From IMG/VR virus record IMGVR_UViG_2579778606_000009: 8,499 bases of DNA; one strand, given 5' to 3'. The DNA is from a virus (Duplodnaviria > Heunggongvirae > Uroviricota > Caudoviricetes). The stretch's first letter is position 1; every line of letters begins with the position of its first letter. Both the position numbers and the translations under genes were made by a program. The notes under the pieces were generated by a model that was not told the DNA's origin, made no database searches, and saw only the letters and a list, made by a program, of their open reading frames with translations. Positions 253 to 8,499 of the stretch are shown in pieces.

Positions 253-3200
253 ATGGGTAAAGGCAGCAGTAAGGGGCATACCCCGCGCGAAGCGAAGGAC
301 AACCTGAAGTCCACGCAGCTGCTGAGTGTGATCGATGCCATCAGCGAAGGGCCGGTTGAAGGTCCGGTGGATGGATTAAAAAGCGTGCTGCTGAACAGTA
401 CGCCGGTGCTGGACAGTGAGGGGAATACCAATATATCCGGCGTCACGGTGGTGTTCCGGGCCGGTGAGCAGGAGCAGACACCGCCGGAGGGATTTGAATC
501 CTCCGGCTCCGAGACGGTGCTCGGTACAGAAGTGAAATATGACACGCCGATAACCCGGACCATCACGTCGGCAAACATTGACCGTCTGCGTTTTACTTTC
601 GGCGTGCAGGCACTGGTGGAAACCACCTCAAAGGGGGACAGGAATCCATCGGAAGTCCGCCTGCTGGTTCAGATACAACGTAACGGTGGCTGGGTGACGG
701 AAAAAGACATCACCATTAAGGGTAAAACCACTTCACAGTATCTGGCCTCGGTTGTGGTGGATAACCTGCCGCCGCGCCCGTTTAATATCCGGATGCGCAG
801 GATGACGCCGGACAGCACCACAGACCAGCTGCAGAACAAAACGCTCTGGTCGTCATACACTGAAATCATCGATGTGAAACAGTGCTACCCGAACACGGCA
901 CTGGTCGGCGTGCAGGTGGACTCGGAACAGTTCGGCAGCCAGCAGGTGAGCCGTAATTATCATCTTCGCGGGCGCATTCTGCAGGTGCCATCGAACTATA
1001 ACCCGCAGACTCGGCAATACAGCGGTATCTGGGACGGAACGTTTAAGCCAGCATACAGCAATAACATGGCCTGGTGTCTGTGGGATATGCTGACCCATCC
1101 ACGCTACGGCATGGGGAAACGTCTTGGTGCGGCGGATGTGGACAAATGGGCGCTGTATGTCATCGGCCAGTACTGCGACCAGTCAGTGCCGGACGGCTTT
1201 GGCGGCACGGAGCCGCGCATCACCTGTAATGCGTACCTGACCACACAGCGCAAGGCGTGGGATGTGCTCAGTGATTTCTGTTCGGCGATGCGCTGTATGC
1301 TGGTATGGAACGGGCAGACGCTGACGTTCGTGCAGGACCGACCGTCGGATAAGGTGTGGACCTATAACCACAGTAATGTGGTGATGCCGGATGATGGCGC
1401 GCCGTTCCGCTACAGCTTCAGCGCCCTGAAGGACCGCCATAATGCCGTTGAGGTGAACTGGATTGACCCGGATAACGGCTGGGAGACGGCGACAGAGCTT
1501 GTTGAAGATACGCAGGCCATTCTCCGTTACGGTCGTAACGTCACGAAGATGGATGCCTTTGGCTGTACCAGCCGGGGGCAGGCGCACCGCGCCGGGCTGT
1601 GGCTGATTAAAACGGAACTGCTGGAAACGCAGACCGTGGACTTCAGCGTGGGTGCCGAAGGGCTTCGCCATGTACCGGGCGATGTCATTGAAATCTGTGA
1701 TGATGACTATGCCGGTATCAGCACCGGTGGTCGCGTGCTGGCGGTGAACAGCCAGACCCGGACGCTGACGCTCGACCGTGAAATCACGCTGCCATCCTCC
1801 GGTACCACGCTGATAAGCCTGGTTGACGGAAGTGGTAATCCGGTCAGCGTGGAGGTTCAGTCCGTCACCGACGGACTTAAGGTGAAAGTGAACCGGGTTC
1901 CTGACGGCGTTGCAGAATACAGTGTGTGGGGGCTGAAGCTGCCGACGCTGCGCCAGCGCCTGTTCCGCTGTGTGAGTATCCGTGAGAACGATGACGGCAC
2001 GTATGCCATCACTGCCGTGCAGCATGTACCGGAAAAAGAAGCCATCGTGGATAACGGGGCGCACTTTGACGGCGACCAGAGCGGCACGGTGAATGGTGTC
2101 ACGCCGCCAGCGGTGCAGCACCTGACCGCCGAAGTCACCGCAGACAGCGGGGAATATCAGGTGCTGGCGCGCTGGGACACGCCGAAGGTGGTGAAGGGCG
2201 TGAGCTTCCTGCTTCGCCTGACCGTGGCAGCGGATGACGGCAGTGAGCGGCTGGTCAGCACGGCCCGGACGACGGAAACCACATACCGCTTCACGCAACT
2301 GGCGCTGGGGCGGTACACGCTGACAGTCCGGGCGGTAAATGCGTGGGGACAGCAGGGCGATCCGGCGTCGGTATCGTTCCGGATTGCCGCACCGGTAGCA
2401 CCGTCGCGGATTGAGCTGACGCCGGGGTATTTTCAGATAACCGCCACGCCGCATCTTGCCGTTTATGACCCGACGGTACAGTTTGAGTTCTGGTTCTCGG
2501 AAAAGCGGATTACCGATATCAGGCAGGTTGAAACCACAGCCAGCTATCTTGGCACGGGGCTGTACTGGATAGCCGCCAGTATCAATATCAAACCGGGCCA
2601 TGATTATTATTTTTACGTTCGCAGTGTGAACACCGTTGGCAAATCGGCATTCGTGGAGGCTGTTGGTCAGCCGAGTGATGATGCATCCGGCTATCTGGAT
2701 TTTTTCAAAGGCGAGATAGGGAAAACCCATCTGGCTCAGGAGCTGTGGACGCAGATTGATAACGGTCAGCTTGCGCCTGACCTGGCTGAAATCAGGACGT
2801 CCATTACGGATGTCAGCAATGAAATCACGCAGACCGTCAATAAGAAACTGGAAGACCAGAGTGCAGCGATCCAGCAGATACAGAAGGTTCAGGTTGATAC
2901 AAATAATAACCTGAACAGCATGTGGGCAGTGAAGCTGCAGCAGATGCAGGACGGACGCCTTTATATTGCGGGTATCGGTGCCGGTATTGAGAACACCCCC
3001 GACGGCATGCAGAGTCAGGTGCTGCTGGCGGCGGACAGGATTGCGATGATTAATCCTGCGAATGGCAACACAAAGCCGATGTTTGTTGGTCAGGGCGATC
3101 AGATATTCATGAATGAAGTGTTCCTGAAATATCTGACGGCTCCCACCATTACCAGCGGCGGTAATCCTCCGGCATTTTCCCTGACACCGGACGGGCGACT

Positions 3201-3327
3201 GACGGCGAAAAATGCCGATATCAGCGGTAGCGTGAATGCGAACTCTGGGACGCTCAACAACGTCACGATTAACGATAACTGTCGCCGGAAAAACTGTCCG
3301 CGAACCAGGATGAAGGGTTGTCGTTAA
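253..3327 (+). CDS. J: Host specificity protein J (central tail fibre / tail tip), 1024-aa ORF that ends prematurely relative to lambda gpJ
   Basis: ATG at 253 preceded by ggag at 241-244. The translation [34 protein letters not shown]... is near-identical, from memory, to lambda gpJ across most of its length, including the fibronectin-like central region and ...[40 protein letters not shown].... The frame ends at TAA 3325-3327 after a non-homologous tail [16 protein letters not shown]. Confidence 0.9.
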
Positions 3328-3331
3328 AACA

Positions 3332-3727
3332 GTGGGCAAAGCTTTCCCCCGGGACTCCCGTGCACCGGAGCGGTGGCCATCAGGGACCATTACCGTCAGG
3401 GTTTATGACGATCAGCCGTTTGACCGGCAAATTGTTATTCCAGCGGTGGCTTTCAGCGGTGCCAGACATGAACGGGAGAATAGCGATACTTATTCGTCAT
3501 GCCGCCTGATAGTGAAGAAAAACGGGGCTGAAATTTATAACCGAACGGCTCTGGATAATACTCTGATTTACACGGGTGTTATTGATATGCCTGCAGGCAG
3601 TGGCGTAATGACACTGGAGTTTTCTGTATCAGCATGGTGGGTAAATGGCTGGTATCCCACAGCAAGTATCAGCGATTTGCTGGTTGTTGTGATGAAGAAA
3701 GCCACTGCAGGCATCACGATTAGCTGA
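3332..3727 (+). pseudogene. J: J C-terminal receptor-binding domain, out of frame with the main J ORF (frameshifted J 3' segment)
   Basis: Frame 2 reads (RVVV)[46 protein letters not shown]...DMPAGSGVMTLEFS...VVVMKKATAGITIS*, colinear with the lambda gpJ C-terminus (...AAFPRQRESSVDWPSGTRTVTVTDDHPFDRQIVVLP...DMPAGRGNV...VMVIKKQALGISVV). Homology in this frame begins around 3317; the ORF track assigns a GTG at 3332. A short bridging segment in frame 3 (3279-3320, ...[10 protein letters not shown]...) links the two, implying two single-base frame changes. Confidence 0.7.
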
Positions 3728-3794: not shown

Positions 3795-4394
3795 ATGCGT
3801 AAATTATGTGCTGTTATTCTGTCCACAGTAGTCTGGCTGGTCGCCGCTGGTACGCCAGCGAGCGCAGCAGAGCATCAGTCCACACTAAGCGCCGGGTATC
3901 TTCAGACCCATACTGATATGCCCGGCAACGATGACCTGAAGGGCATTAACGTGAAATACCGTTATGAATTTACGGACACGCTGGGGCTGGTGACGTCATT
4001 CAGTTATGCCATTGTAAAACATGAGCAAAAAACGCATTACAGCGATACCCGCTGGCATGAAGATTCAGTGCGTAACCGCTGGTTCAGCATGATGGCGGGG
4101 CCGTCTGTACGCGTGAATGAATGGTTCAGTGCTTATGCGATGGCAGGTGTGGCTTACAGCCGTGTTTCAACTTTTTCCGGGGATTATCTCCGCGTAACTG
4201 ACAGCAAGGGGAAAACGCACGATGTGCTGACCGGAAGTGATGACGGTCGCCACAGCAACACGTCTCTGGCGTGGGGGGCTGGCGTGCAGTTTAACCCGAC
4301 CGAATCCGTGGCCATTGATATTGCTTATGAAGGCTCCGGCAGTGGTGACTGGCGCACTGACGGTTTCATCGTGGGTGTCGGTTATAAATTCTGA
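3795..4394 (+). CDS. lom: Lom, Ail/Lom-family 8-stranded beta-barrel outer-membrane protein
   Basis: RBS gagagg (3784-3789) and ATG at 3795. N-terminal signal peptide MRKLCAVILSTVVWLVAAGTPASA|AE. The C-terminus ...VAIDIAYEGSGSGDWRTDGFIVGVGYKF* matches lambda Lom as I recall it and ends in the aromatic residue typical of OMPs. Position between J and stf is as in lambda. Confidence 0.9.
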   Translation: MRKLCAVILSTVVWLVAAGTPASAAEHQSTLSAGYLQTHTDMPGNDDLKGINVKYRYEFTDTLGLVTSFSYAIVKHEQKTHYSDTRWHEDSVRNRWFSMMAGPSVRVNEWFSAYAMAGVAYSRVSTFSGDYLRVTDSKGKTHDVLTGSDDGRHSNTSLAWGAGVQFNPTESVAIDIAYEGSGSGDWRTDGFIVGVGYKF

Positions 4395-4420
4395 TTAGCC
4401 AGGTAACACAGTGTTATGAC

Positions 4421-4447
4421 AGCCCGCCGGTTCAGGCGGGCTTTTTT
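4421..4447 (+). terminator. Rho-independent terminator downstream of lom
   Basis: agcccgcc (4421-4428), loop ggttca, ggcgggct (4435-4442), followed by a T-run to 4447. Confidence 0.65.
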
Positions 4448-4480
4448 GTGGAGTGGATATAGCAATTAAAAATCTCAGGT

Positions 4481-6832
4481 GTGCTGAAAGATTGTGCGGG
4501 AAAACCAATACAGAACTGCACTATTCAACTGAAGGCAAAGCGTAACAGCACCACGGTACTGGTGAACACGGTGGCCTCTGAAAATCCGGATGAAGCCGGG
4601 CGTTACAGCATGGATGTTGAGCATGGCCAGTACAGCGTCATCCTGCTGGTTGAAGGTTTTCCGCCTTCACATGCCGGGACCATTACCGTCTATGAAGGCT
4701 CCAGACCAGGTACGCTGAATGATTTTCTCGGTGCCATGACGGAAGAGGATGTCATGCCGGAGGCATTGCGTCGTTTTGAGGCAATGGTGGAAGAAGTGGC
4801 ACGCAACGCCGAAGCCGCCTCTCAGAGCGCAGCGGCGGCAAAGAAATCCGAAACTGCAGCGGCATCATCGAAGAACGCGGCGAAAACCTCAGAAACGAAT
4901 GCAGCTAATAGTGCACAGGCGGCAGCGACCTCAAAGACTGCATCGGCAAACTCTGCGACAGCAGCCAAAAAATCAGAAACCAACGCGAAAAACAGTGAGA
5001 CAGCCGCAAAGACGAGCGAAACCAACGCAAAGTCCAGCCAGACGGCAGCGAAAACCAGCGAAACGAATGCCAAAGCCAGTGAAACTGCGGCAAAAAACAG
5101 CCAGGCTGCAGCAGCTGAAAGCGAGAGCGCGGCAGCCGGTTCTGCGACTTCAGCAGCTGGATCAGCAACTGCTGCGGCTAACAGCCAGAAAGCTGCGAAG
5201 ACGAGTGAAACTAACGCAAAGTCCAGCCAGACGGCAGCGAAGACCAGCGAAACGAATGCCAAAGCCAGTGAAACTGCGGCGAAAAGCAGTCAGGATGCAG
5301 CGGCCCAAAGCGAGAGTGCCGCAGCCAGTTCTGCAAGCGCGGCGGCTGCTTCTGCCACTGCATCAGCTAACAGTCAAAAAGCAGCAAAAACCAGTGAAAC
5401 CAACGCAAAGGTGAGCGAAACAGCGGCTGCGAACTCAGCGAAAGCATCGGCAGCAAGCCAGACGGCAGCTAAAGCAAGCGAAGATGCAGCCAGAGAGTAC
5501 GCAAGCCAGGCTGCGGAGCCGTATAAATATGTCTTACAACCGCTACCTGATGTGTGGATACCGTTTAACGATTCGCTGGATATGATTACGGGCTTTTCGC
5601 CATCATATAAAAAGATTGTTATTGGCGACGACGAAATAACAATGCCTGGCGACAAGGTTGTTAAGTTTAAACGCGCATCGAAAGCAACCTATATTAATAA
5701 ATCTGGTGTGCTTACAGAGGCTGCCATTGACGAGCCACGATTTGAACGTGATGGCCTGCTTATTGAGGGACAACGAACAAACTACATGCTCAATTCGGAA
5801 AACCCTGCCAGTTGGGGGCGATCGTCAAATATGGATGTTCCCGAAACCGGGACTGATAGTTTTGGTTTTACCTATGGAAAGTTTGTCTGTAACGATTCTC
5901 TGATTGGGCAAACGTCAGCCATTAATATGGCATCAATTGCTGCTACAAAGTCAGTTGATGTTTCAGGCGATAACAAGTACGTGACAACCTCATGTCGTTT
6001 TAAAACAGAACGACAGGTAAGGTTGCGTATCCGCTTTGATAAATATGACGGTAGTGCAACAACTTTTCTTGGTGATGCATATATTGATACACAAACGCTT
6101 GAAATTAATATGACAGGTGGCGCGGCCTCAAGGATTACAGCGAGAGTCAGAAAGGACGAAGCTACCGGATGGATTTTTGCAGAGGCAACAATCCTGGCAA
6201 TTGATGATGAGTTAAAAATAGGATCTCAGATACAGTATTCTCCTAAGCAGGGCGGAGCAACCGTATCTGGAGACTATATTTATCTGGCCACCCCTCAGGT
6301 TGAGGATGGTTCGTGTGCATCATCTTTTATTATCTCAGGAACGACGGCGGCTACCCGCGCAAGCGATATAGTTACAGTTCCAATTAATAATAATCTTTAT
6401 AATCTTCCTTTTACGGTTCTTTGTGAGGTACATAAGAACTGGTATAAAACGCCAAATGCAGCGCCGCGTGTTTTTGATACAGGCGGTCATCAAACCGGAG
6501 CGGCTATTATTCTTGGCTTCGGTCGTTCAACAGATTACGACGGATTTCCTTATTGCGATATTGGAGGAGCTAACAGACGGGTAAACGAAAACGCATCGCT
6601 TGAAAAAATGGTTATGGGGATGCGTGTAAAATCAGATCAGTCTACGTGCTCAGTAAGTAACGGGCGCATATCCAGCGAAACAAAGACTACGTGGTCCTAT
6701 ATTCAGAACTCTGCAACCATCCGTATTGGAGGCCAGACTACAGCAGGCTTACGTCATTTATTTGGTCATATCAGGAATTTCAGAATATGGCATAAAGCAT
6801 TAACAGACCAACAAATGGCTGAGGTTATTTAA
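4481..6832 (+). CDS. stf: Side tail fibre protein: lambda Stf-like N-terminal domain, Ala/Ser/Thr-rich repeat shaft, and a non-lambda distal domain with a concanavalin/LamG-like C-terminal motif
   Basis: 783-aa ORF. Residues 1-100 (..KDCAGKPIQNCTIQLKAKRNSTTVLVNTVASENPDEAGRYSMDVEHGQYSVILLVEGFPPSHAGTITVYEGSRPGTLNDFLGAMTEED...) match the lambda Stf N-terminus from memory. The authentic start is probably GTG 4453 (VDIAIK...) in another frame, joined by a single-base frameshift at the A5 run 4468-4472. The C-terminal 430 aa are unrelated to lambda Stf and end ...GLRHLFGHIRNFRIWHKALTDQQMAEVI*. Confidence 0.85.
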   Translation: MLKDCAGKPIQNCTIQLKAKRNSTTVLVNTVASENPDEAGRYSMDVEHGQYSVILLVEGFPPSHAGTITVYEGSRPGTLNDFLGAMTEEDVMPEALRRFEAMVEEVARNAEAASQSAAAAKKSETAAASSKNAAKTSETNAANSAQAAATSKTASANSATAAKKSETNAKNSETAAKTSETNAKSSQTAAKTSETNAKASETAAKNSQAAAAESESAAAGSATSAAGSATAAANSQKAAKTSETNAKSSQTAAKTSETNAKASETAAKSSQDAAAQSESAAASSASAAAASATASANSQKAAKTSETNAKVSETAAANSAKASAASQTAAKASEDAAREYASQAAEPYKYVLQPLPDVWIPFNDSLDMITGFSPSYKKIVIGDDEITMPGDKVVKFKRASKATYINKSGVLTEAAIDEPRFERDGLLIEGQRTNYMLNSENPASWGRSSNMDVPETGTDSFGFTYGKFVCNDSLIGQTSAINMASIAATKSVDVSGDNKYVTTSCRFKTERQVRLRIRFDKYDGSATTFLGDAYIDTQTLEINMTGGAASRITARVRKDEATGWIFAEATILAIDDELKIGSQIQYSPKQGGATVSGDYIYLATPQVEDGSCASSFIISGTTAATRASDIVTVPINNNLYNLPFTVLCEVHKNWYKTPNAAPRVFDTGGHQTGAAIILGFGRSTDYDGFPYCDIGGANRRVNENASLEKMVMGMRVKSDQSTCSVSNGRISSETKTTWSYIQNSATIRIGGQTTAGLRHLFGHIRNFRIWHKALTDQQMAEVI
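5008..5385 (+). repeat. Two tandem copies of a 189-bp (63-aa) unit inside the stf shaft, within a longer degenerate Ala/Ser/Thr/Lys repeat region (about 4806-5500)
   Basis: gacgagcgaaaccaacgcaaagtccagccagacggcagcgaaaaccagcgaaacgaatgccaaagccagtgaaactgcggc... at 5011 recurs with a few substitutions at 5200 (offset 189). At protein level KTSETNAKSSQTAAKTSETNAKASETAAK(N/S)SQ(A/D)AAA(E/Q)SESAAA(G/S)S... repeats, with shorter AAKTSETNAK-type sub-repeats nested inside. Confidence 0.8.
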
Positions 6833-7113
6833 TGAAAGATATTACGTTGAAATTTGCCGACAGGGCCGACTTTTCGGCCTTTATGGAGAGTATTGGCTAT
6901 TATGATGACGAGTCGATGCAGGATGATATTCTTATTGACGTGATAGGTAACGTGTACAAAGAAACCGGAGAACTGACTGAAGATGGCGAACCGGTATGTG
7001 TTAAGGAAGACGGATATTTTGTAAACGTGCGCATCATTAATGATTCGCAAATATCGTCATTATTCGATGAATACGTGGTTGCTGTTGAGCATCAACTTCG
7101 TGGCTGGATGTGA
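6832..7113 (+). CDS. Hypothetical small acidic protein (93 aa), translationally coupled to stf; possible fibre chaperone or adaptor
   Basis: ATG at 6832 overlaps the stf stop (TAATG) with gaggt at 6821-6825 upstream. It ends at TGA 7111-7113, 9 nt before the next gene. D/E-rich, no TM or signal sequence; I do not recognise a family. It occupies the position where lambda has tfa but does not resemble Tfa. Confidence 0.55.
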   Translation: MKDITLKFADRADFSAFMESIGYYDDESMQDDILIDVIGNVYKETGELTEDGEPVCVKEDGYFVNVRIINDSQISSLFDEYVVAVEHQLRGWM

Positions 7114-7122
7114 GGAAGAAAA

Positions 7123-8163
7123 ATGGCTACATCGACAGTAATTCCTGATGACATCAAAACGCTAAAATCCGACGTTAGCAAATTAAAAAACGATCAAGGA
7201 AGCTACGCAACAAAATTATATGTAGACAGCAAAGATGAAATCGTTGGTGACTGGTCTGCTTCATGGTATCAGCAGGTATTGCCAACTAGCGGAGCTATAT
7301 TTGGGAGAAAACTCCGCTCAACTCACAGGACGGCAGGTGTTGAGGATGCGTATTGCGAACTATACCTCAAAAAATGGATAGACAGTCCAGGTAACGCAAT
7401 GGCGCGCCTTAACCTGAACGATAACGGGACAAACATTTGCTGGGACTTTACCAACCTTTATGGCGGTACGATGATTTTTCCCGGTGACAGCGGATACCTC
7501 AAAATGGGTAACTGCCTTATGTCATACAGCAAGCGTGGAAGTAACGCGCTTATTAAATTTGATTACACCGACACATTACAGATCAAATATGCCAATCATG
7601 GGTCAACCATGACATTAAACACACAGGGAACCGCTTATGCTGGTGTTACTGCTCAATTGTGGGGCAACTCCAGCCGTCCTGTTGTTTATGAAGTCGGTGT
7701 TGATGGTGGCGCTTATATGTTCTATGCGCAGAAAAATACCGATAACACCTATATGTTAAGCGTTAATGGTGCATGTCATGCCACCGCATTTAACCAGCAT
7801 TCCGACCGGGATCTGAAAGACAACATTCAGGTGATCGATAATGCAACCGACCGCATCCGTAAAATGAACGGCTATACATACACGCTTAAAGAAAACGGTA
7901 TGCCCTATGCTGGTGTCATTGCACAGGAAGCTCTGGAAGCAATCCCAGAAGTTGTAGGTTCCGCAATGAAATATCAGGACGGTGCAAGCGGATCGGAAGG
8001 TGAAGAAGGTGAACGTTATTACACAGTAGATTATTCTGGTGTTACTGGCTTGCTTGTTCAGGTAGCCAGAGAGTCAGACGACAGAATAACAGCACTGGAA
8101 GAAGAAAATGCAGAATTAAAACAAAGATTATCTGCAATTGAGGCGACGCTTGCGTCTAAATAA
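7123..8163 (+). CDS. Tail-fibre/tailspike-like protein (346 aa) with a C-terminal Peptidase_S74-type intramolecular chaperone domain
   Basis: RBS gaggaag (7112-7118) and ATG at 7123. The C-terminal about 120 aa read S227-DRDLK232-DNIQVIDNATDRIRKMNGYTYTLKENGMPYAGVIAQEALEAIPEVVG...ITALEEENAELKQRLSAIE. This matches the S-D-x-x-L-K Ser/Lys dyad motif, the GVIAQE...P.V core and the terminal coiled coil of endosialidase and T5 pb1-type self-cleaving chaperone domains. The preceding region is beta-rich (Gly/Asn/Thr/Tyr). Confidence 0.75.
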   Translation: MATSTVIPDDIKTLKSDVSKLKNDQGSYATKLYVDSKDEIVGDWSASWYQQVLPTSGAIFGRKLRSTHRTAGVEDAYCELYLKKWIDSPGNAMARLNLNDNGTNICWDFTNLYGGTMIFPGDSGYLKMGNCLMSYSKRGSNALIKFDYTDTLQIKYANHGSTMTLNTQGTAYAGVTAQLWGNSSRPVVYEVGVDGGAYMFYAQKNTDNTYMLSVNGACHATAFNQHSDRDLKDNIQVIDNATDRIRKMNGYTYTLKENGMPYAGVIAQEALEAIPEVVGSAMKYQDGASGSEGEEGERYYTVDYSGVTGLLVQVARESDDRITALEEENAELKQRLSAIEATLASK

Positions 8164-8169
8164 TATTAA

Positions 8170-8192
8170 GGGGCCGAGCGCCCCGTTTTATT
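8170..8192 (+). terminator. Rho-independent terminator after the 346-aa gene
   Basis: ggggc (8170-8174), loop cgagc, gcccc (8180-8184), followed by gttttatt. Confidence 0.55.
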
Positions 8193-8205
8193 GGGTAGGA
8201 TGAAA

Positions 8206-8499
8206 ATGGATATAACACCTTTCCTTCATGCACTTTGTGCTGTGGCTGCGCAGGTACTGGTTGGTCTTTTTACCGGAAACTGGGCTTACGGGGCGATAGC
8301 CGGTTGTACGTTCTTCATTGCTCGTGAACATACCCAGGCAGAATATCGCTGGATTGAAATGTTCGGGCATGGCAAGCGTATGAATATGCCGTGGTGGGGT
8401 GGTTTTGATCCGCGCGTGTGGGATGTGGCAAGCCTGATGGATTTTTCTGTGCCGGTGGTGGCTTGTCTGCTGGTCTGGCTGTTGGTTAATCGTGGGTGA
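8206..8499 (+). CDS. Small hydrophobic membrane protein of unknown function (about 97 aa, three predicted helices); candidate moron
   Basis: ATG at 8206 with agga (8197-8200) 5 nt upstream; alternative starts are ATG 8200 and the track's TTG 8191. Stop is TGA 8497-8499. Three hydrophobic stretches: ITPFLHALCAVAAQVLVGLF, AYGAIAGCTFFIA, FSVPVVACLLVWLLV. No lipobox, and no charged C-terminal tail of the kind holins carry. Family not recognised. Confidence 0.6.
   Translation: MDITPFLHALCAVAAQVLVGLFTGNWAYGAIAGCTFFIAREHTQAEYRWIEMFGHGKRMNMPWWGGFDPRVWDVASLMDFSVPVVACLLVWLLVNRG

Follow-up and report, generated by a model that had tools for sequence, protein, structure and literature searches.

What forms the end of a lambda-like side tail fibre whose distal half no longer resembles that of lambda, and how did it come to be there? 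The question is raised by an 8,499-nucleotide (nt) stretch of viral DNA (IMG/VR record IMGVR_UViG_2579778606_000009; hereafter the window), which is the distal tail region of a lambdoid Escherichia coli prophage. A first-pass annotation, made by a model from the letters alone, described its side tail fibre gene, stf, as a mosaic of a lambda-like proximal half and a foreign, AT-richer distal domain with a concanavalin A (ConA)-like or laminin G (LamG)-like signature. We find that stf is a natural chimera, in which lambda-type residues 1–352 are joined at nt 5537 to a 431-residue foreign module. The parts of the chimera, and of the cassette to which its module belongs, are as follows (aa, amino acids; GTA, gene transfer agent; D1 and D2, the two predicted domains of the module).

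4481–6832, + strand: stf, 783 aa
4481–4852, + strand: N-terminal tail-attachment domain of stf, lambda Stf-type (aa 1–124; PF08400)
4853–5536, + strand: Ala/Ser/Thr-rich repetitive shaft, lambda Stf-like in character (aa 125–352; the alignment to lambda orf-401 ends at aa ~335)
5537, + strand: mosaic junction, Stf residue 353, start of 'LQPLPDVWIPFNDSL'
5537–6370, + strand: module part 1, a conserved N-terminal segment and predicted beta-sandwich D1 of the 'GTA head-spike-fibre' type (~aa 353–630)
6371–6829, + strand: module part 2, predicted C-terminal ConA-like/Laminin_G_3/pentraxin-like jelly roll D2 (~aa 631–783), ending in GHIRNFRIWHKALTDQQMAEVI
6832–7113, + strand: orf93, 93 aa
7123–8163, + strand: second short fibre gene, 346 aa
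5537–8163, + strand: low-GC cassette (stf distal module, orf93 and second fibre), which moves between phage types

A natural chimera joined at nucleotide 5537

The N-terminal domain of Stf belongs to the lambda-type Stf family, with Pfam PF08400 (phage_tail_N) matching aa 2–124 far above its gathering cutoff (E 8.8e-61, 204.2 bits versus 26.6). The proximal half is lambda Stf-like, as the first-pass annotation had it: aa 1–335 share 57% identity with lambda orf-401, which is the proximal Stf (E 1e-73), and the attachment domain (aa 1–124) is ~85% identical. Its statement that the distal protein is unlike lambda Stf is borne out as well, because lambda orf-314, the distal Stf, has no similarity to Stf (best E 5.3), and the arrangement of a whole lambda-type Stf, an orf-314-like distal part followed by a Caudo_TAP gene, is not found in the window. 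The left edge of blastn homology lies at nt 5537 for both Nonagvirus ESCO3 and a P2-like prophage (L008/L009) and at nt 5495 for the T1-like Warwickvirus tinuso, and the first substitution relative to the window's own lineage (L001) is at 5539. Consistent with these edges, protein comparison revealed four different, unrelated shafts leading into a common '(I/L)QPLPDVWIPFNDSL', the module starting at 'QPLPDVW'. The breakpoints, the common protein junction and the orf-401 and orf-314 results support the proposed recombinational mosaic at the shaft/tip boundary, and the homology junction falls within ~17–37 nt of the boundary estimated earlier at about 5500–5520.

Composition changes at the same place. 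In 300-nt windows, GC content is 0.54–0.58 over 4650–5550 and 0.41–0.48 from ~5400 onward; by segment, it is 0.547 in the N-domain, 0.549 in the repeats and 0.435 in the distal part (aa 353–783), and GC at third codon positions (GC3) is 0.56, 0.474 and 0.357, respectively. Composition is therefore not uniform across stf, and the fall from 0.55 to 0.435 (GC3, 0.50 to 0.36) agrees with the AT-richer distal DNA that had been noted earlier; however, the drop, although real, is not confined to stf but extends through two more genes to 8163, so that the low-GC block is 5537–8163 (GC 0.435 versus 0.550 upstream and 0.518 downstream). Such a change could be a by-product of amino-acid content, an Ala-rich shaft giving way to a globular domain, rather than a sign of foreign origin, and GC at codon positions 1 and 2 in the repeats is indeed above that elsewhere (0.586). 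Yet synonymous sites shift too (GC3 0.503 for aa 1–352 versus 0.357 for aa 353–783; two-proportion z = 4.1), so the drop is not merely an effect of the Ala (GCN) codons of the shaft; moreover, the non-repetitive N-domain is likewise GC-rich, low GC goes on through orf93 and the second fibre, and the independent homology breakpoints coincide with the shift. On the GC3 and breakpoint data we rejected Ala codons as the source of the shift, an origin that we regard as extremely improbable.

Stf residue 352/353 is thus a splice point that is both natural and clean: shafts of lambda, Nonagvirus/T1-like and P2 type take the same putative lectin module there. It bears on the engineering of Stf chimeras for retargeting. 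An engineered Stf with a lambda N terminus and a P2 C terminus works (10.1101/2022.09.30.509847).

Upstream of the junction, tandem repeats with periods of 42 nt and 189 nt cover 4957–5410 of the shaft. The 189-nt (63-aa) repeat, at 4991–5410, is present in 2.2 copies of 83% identity, and the shaft has the 42-nt sub-repeats besides. Stf length varies at the shaft repeats in related genes (727–803 aa), and repeat copy number is probably a source of variation in fibre length. In the closest chromosome (L001; NZ_CP070134.1), 7464–9839 corresponds to 4457–6832 of the window and holds an intact 791-codon stf with the frame open throughout, which RefSeq/PGAP splits into a 'prophage tail fiber N-terminal domain' pseudogene and a 'phage head spike fiber domain-containing protein'. 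This two-feature split recurs across many genomes and appears to be an artefact produced in annotation by the repetitive shaft.

Two predicted domains and a 93-residue partner

Structure prediction and profile searches of the distal half, both of which the first-pass annotation had suggested, gave the expected ConA/LamG-like jelly roll for D2 and a different beta-sandwich for D1. The LamG-like domain proposed for the whole distal part therefore stands for its last ~150 residues, for which the terminal motif was a correct lead, but the first ~280 residues correspond to a GTA head spike fibre domain. NCBIfam NF048003 (GTA_spike_fiber) matches aa 427–627 over its full profile (positions 1–181 of 182) and above the curated cutoff (53.6 bits versus 36). 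The sole PDB sequence match at E < 0.01 to a single-sequence query is the Rcc01080 fibre of RcGTA (PDB 6tb9_F3; E 1.4e-5), and a profile of 49 family members matches the same protein at E 8e-44 over ~230 residues; the D1 part of this profile also matches the tail fibre gp17 (9occ) and the Pseudomonas phage wedge proteins Pa193 gp46 and E217 gp45. In the AlphaFold2 (AF2) model of the module (pLDDT 91.6, pTM 0.88), the D1 region is all-beta with pLDDT > 90. Although D1 is homologous to Rcc01080, the settings of the two differ: Rcc01080 is a 325-aa monomer that inserts into a pentameric head-spike base through its N-terminal ILGLGLGL peptide (PMC7296036), whereas D1 is borne on the tip of a tail fibre shaft, ahead of a LamG-like domain.

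An exhaustive search among 1.84 billion representatives placed the module in a family of 2,324 clusters (50% identity) at E <= 1e-3. In 51 inspected full-coverage representatives, which are proteins of 375–1,481 aa, the module lies at or <=7 residues from the C terminus. The most conserved block of the family (>2,300 clusters) is the C-terminal motif GHIRNFRIWHKALTDQQ, which is present in Stf, and the Stf C terminus aligns, with a score below the gathering threshold, to the end of Pfam Laminin_G_3 (PF13385; profile positions 100–149 of 151). A full-length homologue that is 34% identical (P0157) matches Laminin_G_3 with its last 150 residues (positions 11–151, 44.8 bits versus a gathering score of 27.6); 32 of the 49 family members match Laminin_G_3 at E <= 0.01, with 44.8 bits the best score. 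The last ~150 positions of the 49-member profile match C-reactive protein and other pentraxins, the CBM40 lectin of pneumococcal NanA, botulinum toxin Hc, the adhesion-GPCR pentraxin domain and neurexin LamG domains. In keeping with these matches, the predicted beta-sandwich jelly roll of D2 is superposable on solved ConA-like lectin domains. The structural matches were as follows, each with its listed figure.

AbnA domain 4: 18.5
Pa193 gp46: 17.6
BoNT/NTNH HCN: 15–17
PAPP-A: 16.8
PTX3: 15.8
CBM40: 15
laminin, perlecan and neurexin LG domains: 12–14

Foldseek was in accord with these matches. Identity between the module and the Laminin_G_3/ConA-like lectins (pentraxins, sialidase CBM40, BoNT HCN and AbnA domain 4) is only 10–17%. 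By fold, the closest matches are carbohydrate-binding or lectin domains, themselves non-catalytic, of enzymes (AbnA domain 4 and CBM40). Across the module family, the domain cores are variable and framed by conserved blocks; because the variation lies between the framing blocks, the cores fit specificity determinants.

The gene that follows stf, orf93, encodes a small acidic protein of PHROG 1361 (unknown function) for which Pfam and NCBIfam gave no match. The TAA of stf overlaps the ATG of orf93 (TAATG, 6830–6834), which indicates translational coupling, and lambda stf and tfa have the same one-base stop/start coupling. Among 15 diverse loci, drawn from Escherichia, Silvania, Leclercia, Buttiauxella, Aeromonas and metagenomes and with module identity down to ~28%, 14 have an orf93 homologue directly 3′ of the LamG-ended fibre, mostly overlapping its stop codon (hmmsearch E 1e-52 to 5e-6); one related-locus scan built on 9 sequences gave 13 loci. 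The linkage also holds from the other side: 76 of 80 IMG/VR loci with an orf93 homologue have a complete upstream fibre ORF (open reading frame) ending in the LamG motif, and the upstream ORF is truncated or uncalled in the other 4. Moreover, orf93 is retained in ev207, which is without a second fibre, and its divergence parallels that of the module (34% identity in L090). By this gene linkage, orf93 is a near-obligate partner of the module.

The first-pass annotation had noted that tfa is absent and had supposed that a lectin tip may fold without Tfa. The absence is real, with no Caudo_TAP in any window ORF (Pfam) and nothing better than E 5 in a tblastn search with lambda Tfa, and on these results we rejected the presence of a Tfa homologue. 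But independence from a chaperone is not implied, because a conserved 93-aa gene occupies the tfa position and goes with the module. We see an even chance that orf93 is the dedicated assembly factor or structural partner of the module, replacing Tfa. Its AF2 model has a pLDDT of 77.7, and a structure search with the predicted fold gave no informative match. Lambda Stf (orf-401/orf-314) with Tfa and the window stf have in common their position (J-lom-stf), the PF08400 domain, an Ala-rich shaft and a one-base-coupled downstream gene. Unlike in lambda, the distal 431 aa are unrelated, the partner is a 93-aa protein of no known family and not Caudo_TAP/Tfa, and there is an extra fibre gene.

Spread of the cassette and the second fibre

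It is classical that lambda, P2, P1, Mu and T-even phages exchange distal-fibre segments, and the cassette resembles these cases in that distal fibre segments are swapped between siphoviruses and myoviruses. Unlike in the classical swaps, what is exchanged is a GTA-spike-fibre and LamG module, not a P2 H/lambda Stf tip, and its own partner gene travels along. A BLAST search, which the first-pass annotation had advised for tracing donor lineages, brought up three unrelated phage types: 5537–8099 is 92% identical to Nonagvirus ESCO3, 5495–7081 is 77% identical to Warwickvirus tinuso, and 5537–6854 is 99% identical to a P2-like prophage. At 85–100% identity, the module occurs behind PF08400 N termini, behind P2 gpH-type N termini (PF12571 + PF03406), and in ESCO3 and tinuso; behind the P2 gpH-type and PF08400 N termini, protein identity is 97–98%. 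A gene-by-gene check of the P2-like prophage placed its module in the gpH position, between gpI and tail genes. We take the cassette, which usually includes a second fibre gene, to move by recombination, either homologous or illegitimate, between lambdoid siphoviruses, virulent siphoviruses (Nonagvirus and Warwickvirus) and P2-like myoviruses.

In itself the chimera is old and widespread, with the chimeric gene catalogued as PHROG 1419 and found in hundreds of E. coli prophages. Many E. coli chromosomes match the whole window (98.7% identity over its full length), and several isolated phages (Tritos, HannyBb, PhiR63_1 and 2G7b) carry the stretch from stf to the second fibre (4481–8163) at ~96% identity, their stf being annotated as 'tail fiber protein / lambda phage stf protein homolog'. 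The swap of the tip that had been proposed for this window is therefore real but not peculiar to it; what is specific to the window is a recent replacement by a P2-type allele. Relative to L001, the window has 91 mismatches, all in 5539–6849, and is elsewhere identical except for three tiny private patches. Over that tract, it differs from the P2-like L008 at 13 positions, whereas L001 and L008 differ at 92. These comparisons indicate that 5537–6854 of the window was recently replaced by a P2-type allele. Because the replaced tract coincides with the whole homology stretch between the lambda-type and P2-type loci (5537–6854), homologous recombination or gene conversion between prophage types would yield this pattern. 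As the 99%-identical tract in a P2-like prophage and a lambda-like one illustrates concretely, a myovirus and a siphovirus have exchanged DNA very recently.

That the locus exemplifies ordinary tail-fibre mosaicism is well supported, given that the module is catalogued (NF048003 and PHROG 1419) and near-identical genes occur in deposited phages. The core finding mainly corrects annotation, which gives 'tail fiber protein' or, where RefSeq splits the gene, 'head spike fiber domain-containing protein'. Our literature searches returned nothing relevant naming HannyBb, IdasGreatGrand or Tritos, and no paper with the term Laminin_G_3 for a lambdoid side tail fiber.

The cassette ends with the second fibre (PHROG 4563, tail fiber), which has a unique body between two recognizable parts.

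7123–7197, + strand: adaptor peptide (aa 1–~25)
7801–7956, + strand: intramolecular chaperone (aa 227–278)

Peptidase_S74 (PF13884) matches aa 227–278 above its gathering score (E 4.7e-14, 52.8 bits versus 22). The first ~25 residues (MATSTVIPDDIKTLK..., MATxTxIPxDIxxLK) are kept in the proteins, otherwise unrelated, that stand at this position in ESCO3, tinuso and the P2-like prophage; among the 80 IMG/VR loci they also occur on variants of 346, 234 and 227 aa. The second protein of the P2-like prophage joins this peptide to a P1/P2-type tip of the classical kind, which shares 76% identity with the P1 fibre, and a Caudo_TAP of its own comes next. Another internally conserved N-terminal peptide, MAxRxDSIxLT, is found on dissimilar bodies in a diverged Leclercia/Silvania lineage. 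The lambda-like, 9g-like, T1-like and P2-like backbones share nothing but the module and orf93, and the simplest interpretation is a peptide that docks the second fibre on these two. Docking of this kind, giving a two-part or branched fibre in which the 346-aa protein would add a second specificity, seems to us evenly poised between true and false, and weighing against it is the presence of the module and orf93 with no second fibre in loci such as ev207, L096, L101 and L105.

A comparable arrangement is known from the T5-like phage DT57C, in which the first fibre, LtfA, has a conserved tail-attachment N terminus, the second, LtfB, is believed to be attached through the first, and each recognizes its own glycan (PMC4728585, PMC10713586). 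DT57C-type second fibres and that of the window are alike in having a C-terminal intramolecular chaperone; we found no sequence relationship between LtfA or LtfB and the window fibres. Unlike in DT57C, a small third protein, orf93, is near-constant, and attachment is deduced from gene linkage alone. The BASEL papers treat variable lateral-fibre loci and two-protein fibres in general terms only. The near-obligate orf93 and the adaptor-peptide second fibres constitute an uncharacterised, testable assembly system.

Putative role of the module and state of this copy

We infer that the module may be a glycan-binding lectin from its RcGTA homologue, its fold class, the absence of a glucanase motif and its variable cores. 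In experiments, Rcc01080, the head spike fibre of RcGTA, binds capsular polysaccharide (PMC10218006; PMC7296036), and the module would by analogy be a non-enzymatic lectin for reversible primary adsorption to a surface polysaccharide (O-antigen, capsule or similar). Taken together, mosaic and junction, fold class, orf93 linkage, recent replacement and glycan binding by the module make up a reading that is, in our judgement, probably right. Several points weigh against it. The Laminin_G_3 score of the window's own Stf (18.5–19.7 bits) is below the gathering score; the fold of D1 rests on prediction, because the body of the RcGTA fibre is without an experimental structure, only residues 2–10 having been resolved (PMC7296036); the AF2 model is that of a monomer, whereas the shaft is presumably trimeric; and homology and gene order are the basis of every functional claim. 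Moreover, with the stf ATG lost and J frameshifted, the fibre may not be made at all if the sequence is free of errors.

As an alternative, the module would be an enzyme, a glycanase or depolymerase of the 'ConA-like lectin/glucanase' superfamily that cleaves surface polysaccharide. The parts that match, however, are the non-catalytic binding domains (AbnA domain 4 and CBM40), the module contains no GH16-type ExDxxE motif, and no hydrolase family in Pfam or NCBIfam matches it; on these grounds we rejected a glucanase or depolymerase, which would be very unlikely. Less remote, although still unlikely, is a connector role, in which the module is a knee or socket that holds the true tip, the second fibre, with orf93 as the joint, comparable to the gp35/gp36 half-fibre link of T4. 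The conserved order of the cassette (module, orf93 and then a second fibre with a conserved adaptor peptide) fits this role, as does the P2-like prophage, which keeps its classical P1/P2-type tip and Tfa as a separate downstream protein, and D1-type domains occur in the wedge proteins Pa193 gp46 and E217 gp45, which also bear a fibre-attachment loop (PMC11456595). On the other side, the RcGTA homologue binds capsule directly (PMC10218006), variable cores between conserved framing blocks are the pattern of a specificity determinant, and in the several loci with no second fibre the module must have a role of its own. Socket and receptor-binding roles are not mutually exclusive, and the first-pass view of the module as the receptor-binding tip needs to be qualified in that it is perhaps not the sole tip, a second fibre with a conserved adaptor peptide being encoded in the same cassette. 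A tentative extension of the lectin reading, less likely true than not, would unite both roles: the module and its obligate 93-aa partner may be a portable 'socket', lectin and docking station at once, for tips bearing a lineage-matched N-terminal peptide of ~15–25 residues, by which siphoviruses and myoviruses could share and stack receptor-binding proteins, with orf93 as a new class of fibre joint or assembly protein that replaces Tfa.

The lesions bear on a further alternative, that stf in the window is a decaying remnant: with J frameshifted and the stf start lost, the tail module would be defective and the chimera a fossil without current function. J is split by a lesion at 3276–3320 (5 nt deleted and 7 substitutions) that parts the C-terminal receptor-binding domain (Ig_GpJ_C, 3332–3727) from the remainder. 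At 4461–4466, ATGGCAGCAGT is changed to ATAGCAAT--, which destroys the usual ATG 24 nt upstream of 4481; over 4457–4483, the usual start GGATATGGCAGCAGTAAAAATC (MAAVKISG...) reads GGATATAGCAAT--TAAAAATC, so that the ATG is gone and an in-frame TAG is made. The stf ORF could then start only at GTG 4481, which is without a properly spaced Shine-Dalgarno sequence. Both lesions are private, neither occurring in any of ~50 related loci or 5,426 complete E. coli genomes (best match to the J variant, 90.5% over 121 nt). As much as these clustered private lesions favour decay, the remaining 783 stf codons, orf93 and the second fibre are intact and, outside the replaced tract, 100% identical to intact copies, and indels and substitutions clustered within ~45 nt could be assembly or sequencing errors. 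We therefore hold decay to be possible but on balance doubtful; it would concern the state of this copy and not the nature of the module. For the three dense private patches, local errors of sequence or assembly, or else micro-conversions, seem likelier than ordinary point mutation, and either the prophage is defective or its source sequence has local errors. The third of them lies in lom (4012–4020), with four substitutions in 9 nt relative to the otherwise identical L001.

The other genes of the window flank the fibre genes.

253–3327 and 3332–3727: J, in two ORFs
3795–4394: lom
8191 to past the window end at 8499: small membrane-like ORF

In the gap between lom and stf, a strong intrinsic-terminator-like hairpin (CAGCCCGCCGGTTCAGGCGGGCTTTTTTGT) occupies 4420–4449, which suggests that stf and the cassette may be transcribed apart from the J-lom unit or through read-through of it. 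The ORF at 8191–8499 is small and hydrophobic (~97–102 aa) and has no family match; GC is back to 0.52 there. Its equivalent lies directly 3′ of the orf93 homologue in ev207, 4A7 and E. ruysiae; compared with those phages, the window therefore has the 346-aa fibre gene cleanly inserted at the boundary of orf93 and the small ORF. In phage 4A7 (L007, 5990–8406), an insertion sequence with three 'mobile element protein' genes separates stf, which is shorter at 642 aa, from the orf93 homologue. The iron/manganese transporter genes sitABCD lie just past the fibre cassette, from 13319 onward in L001 and from 7028 onward in ev207 (L006); they adjoin the prophage end in the chromosome and form part of the phage genome as deposited for ev207 and 4A7, which suggests that sit is cargo of these phages.

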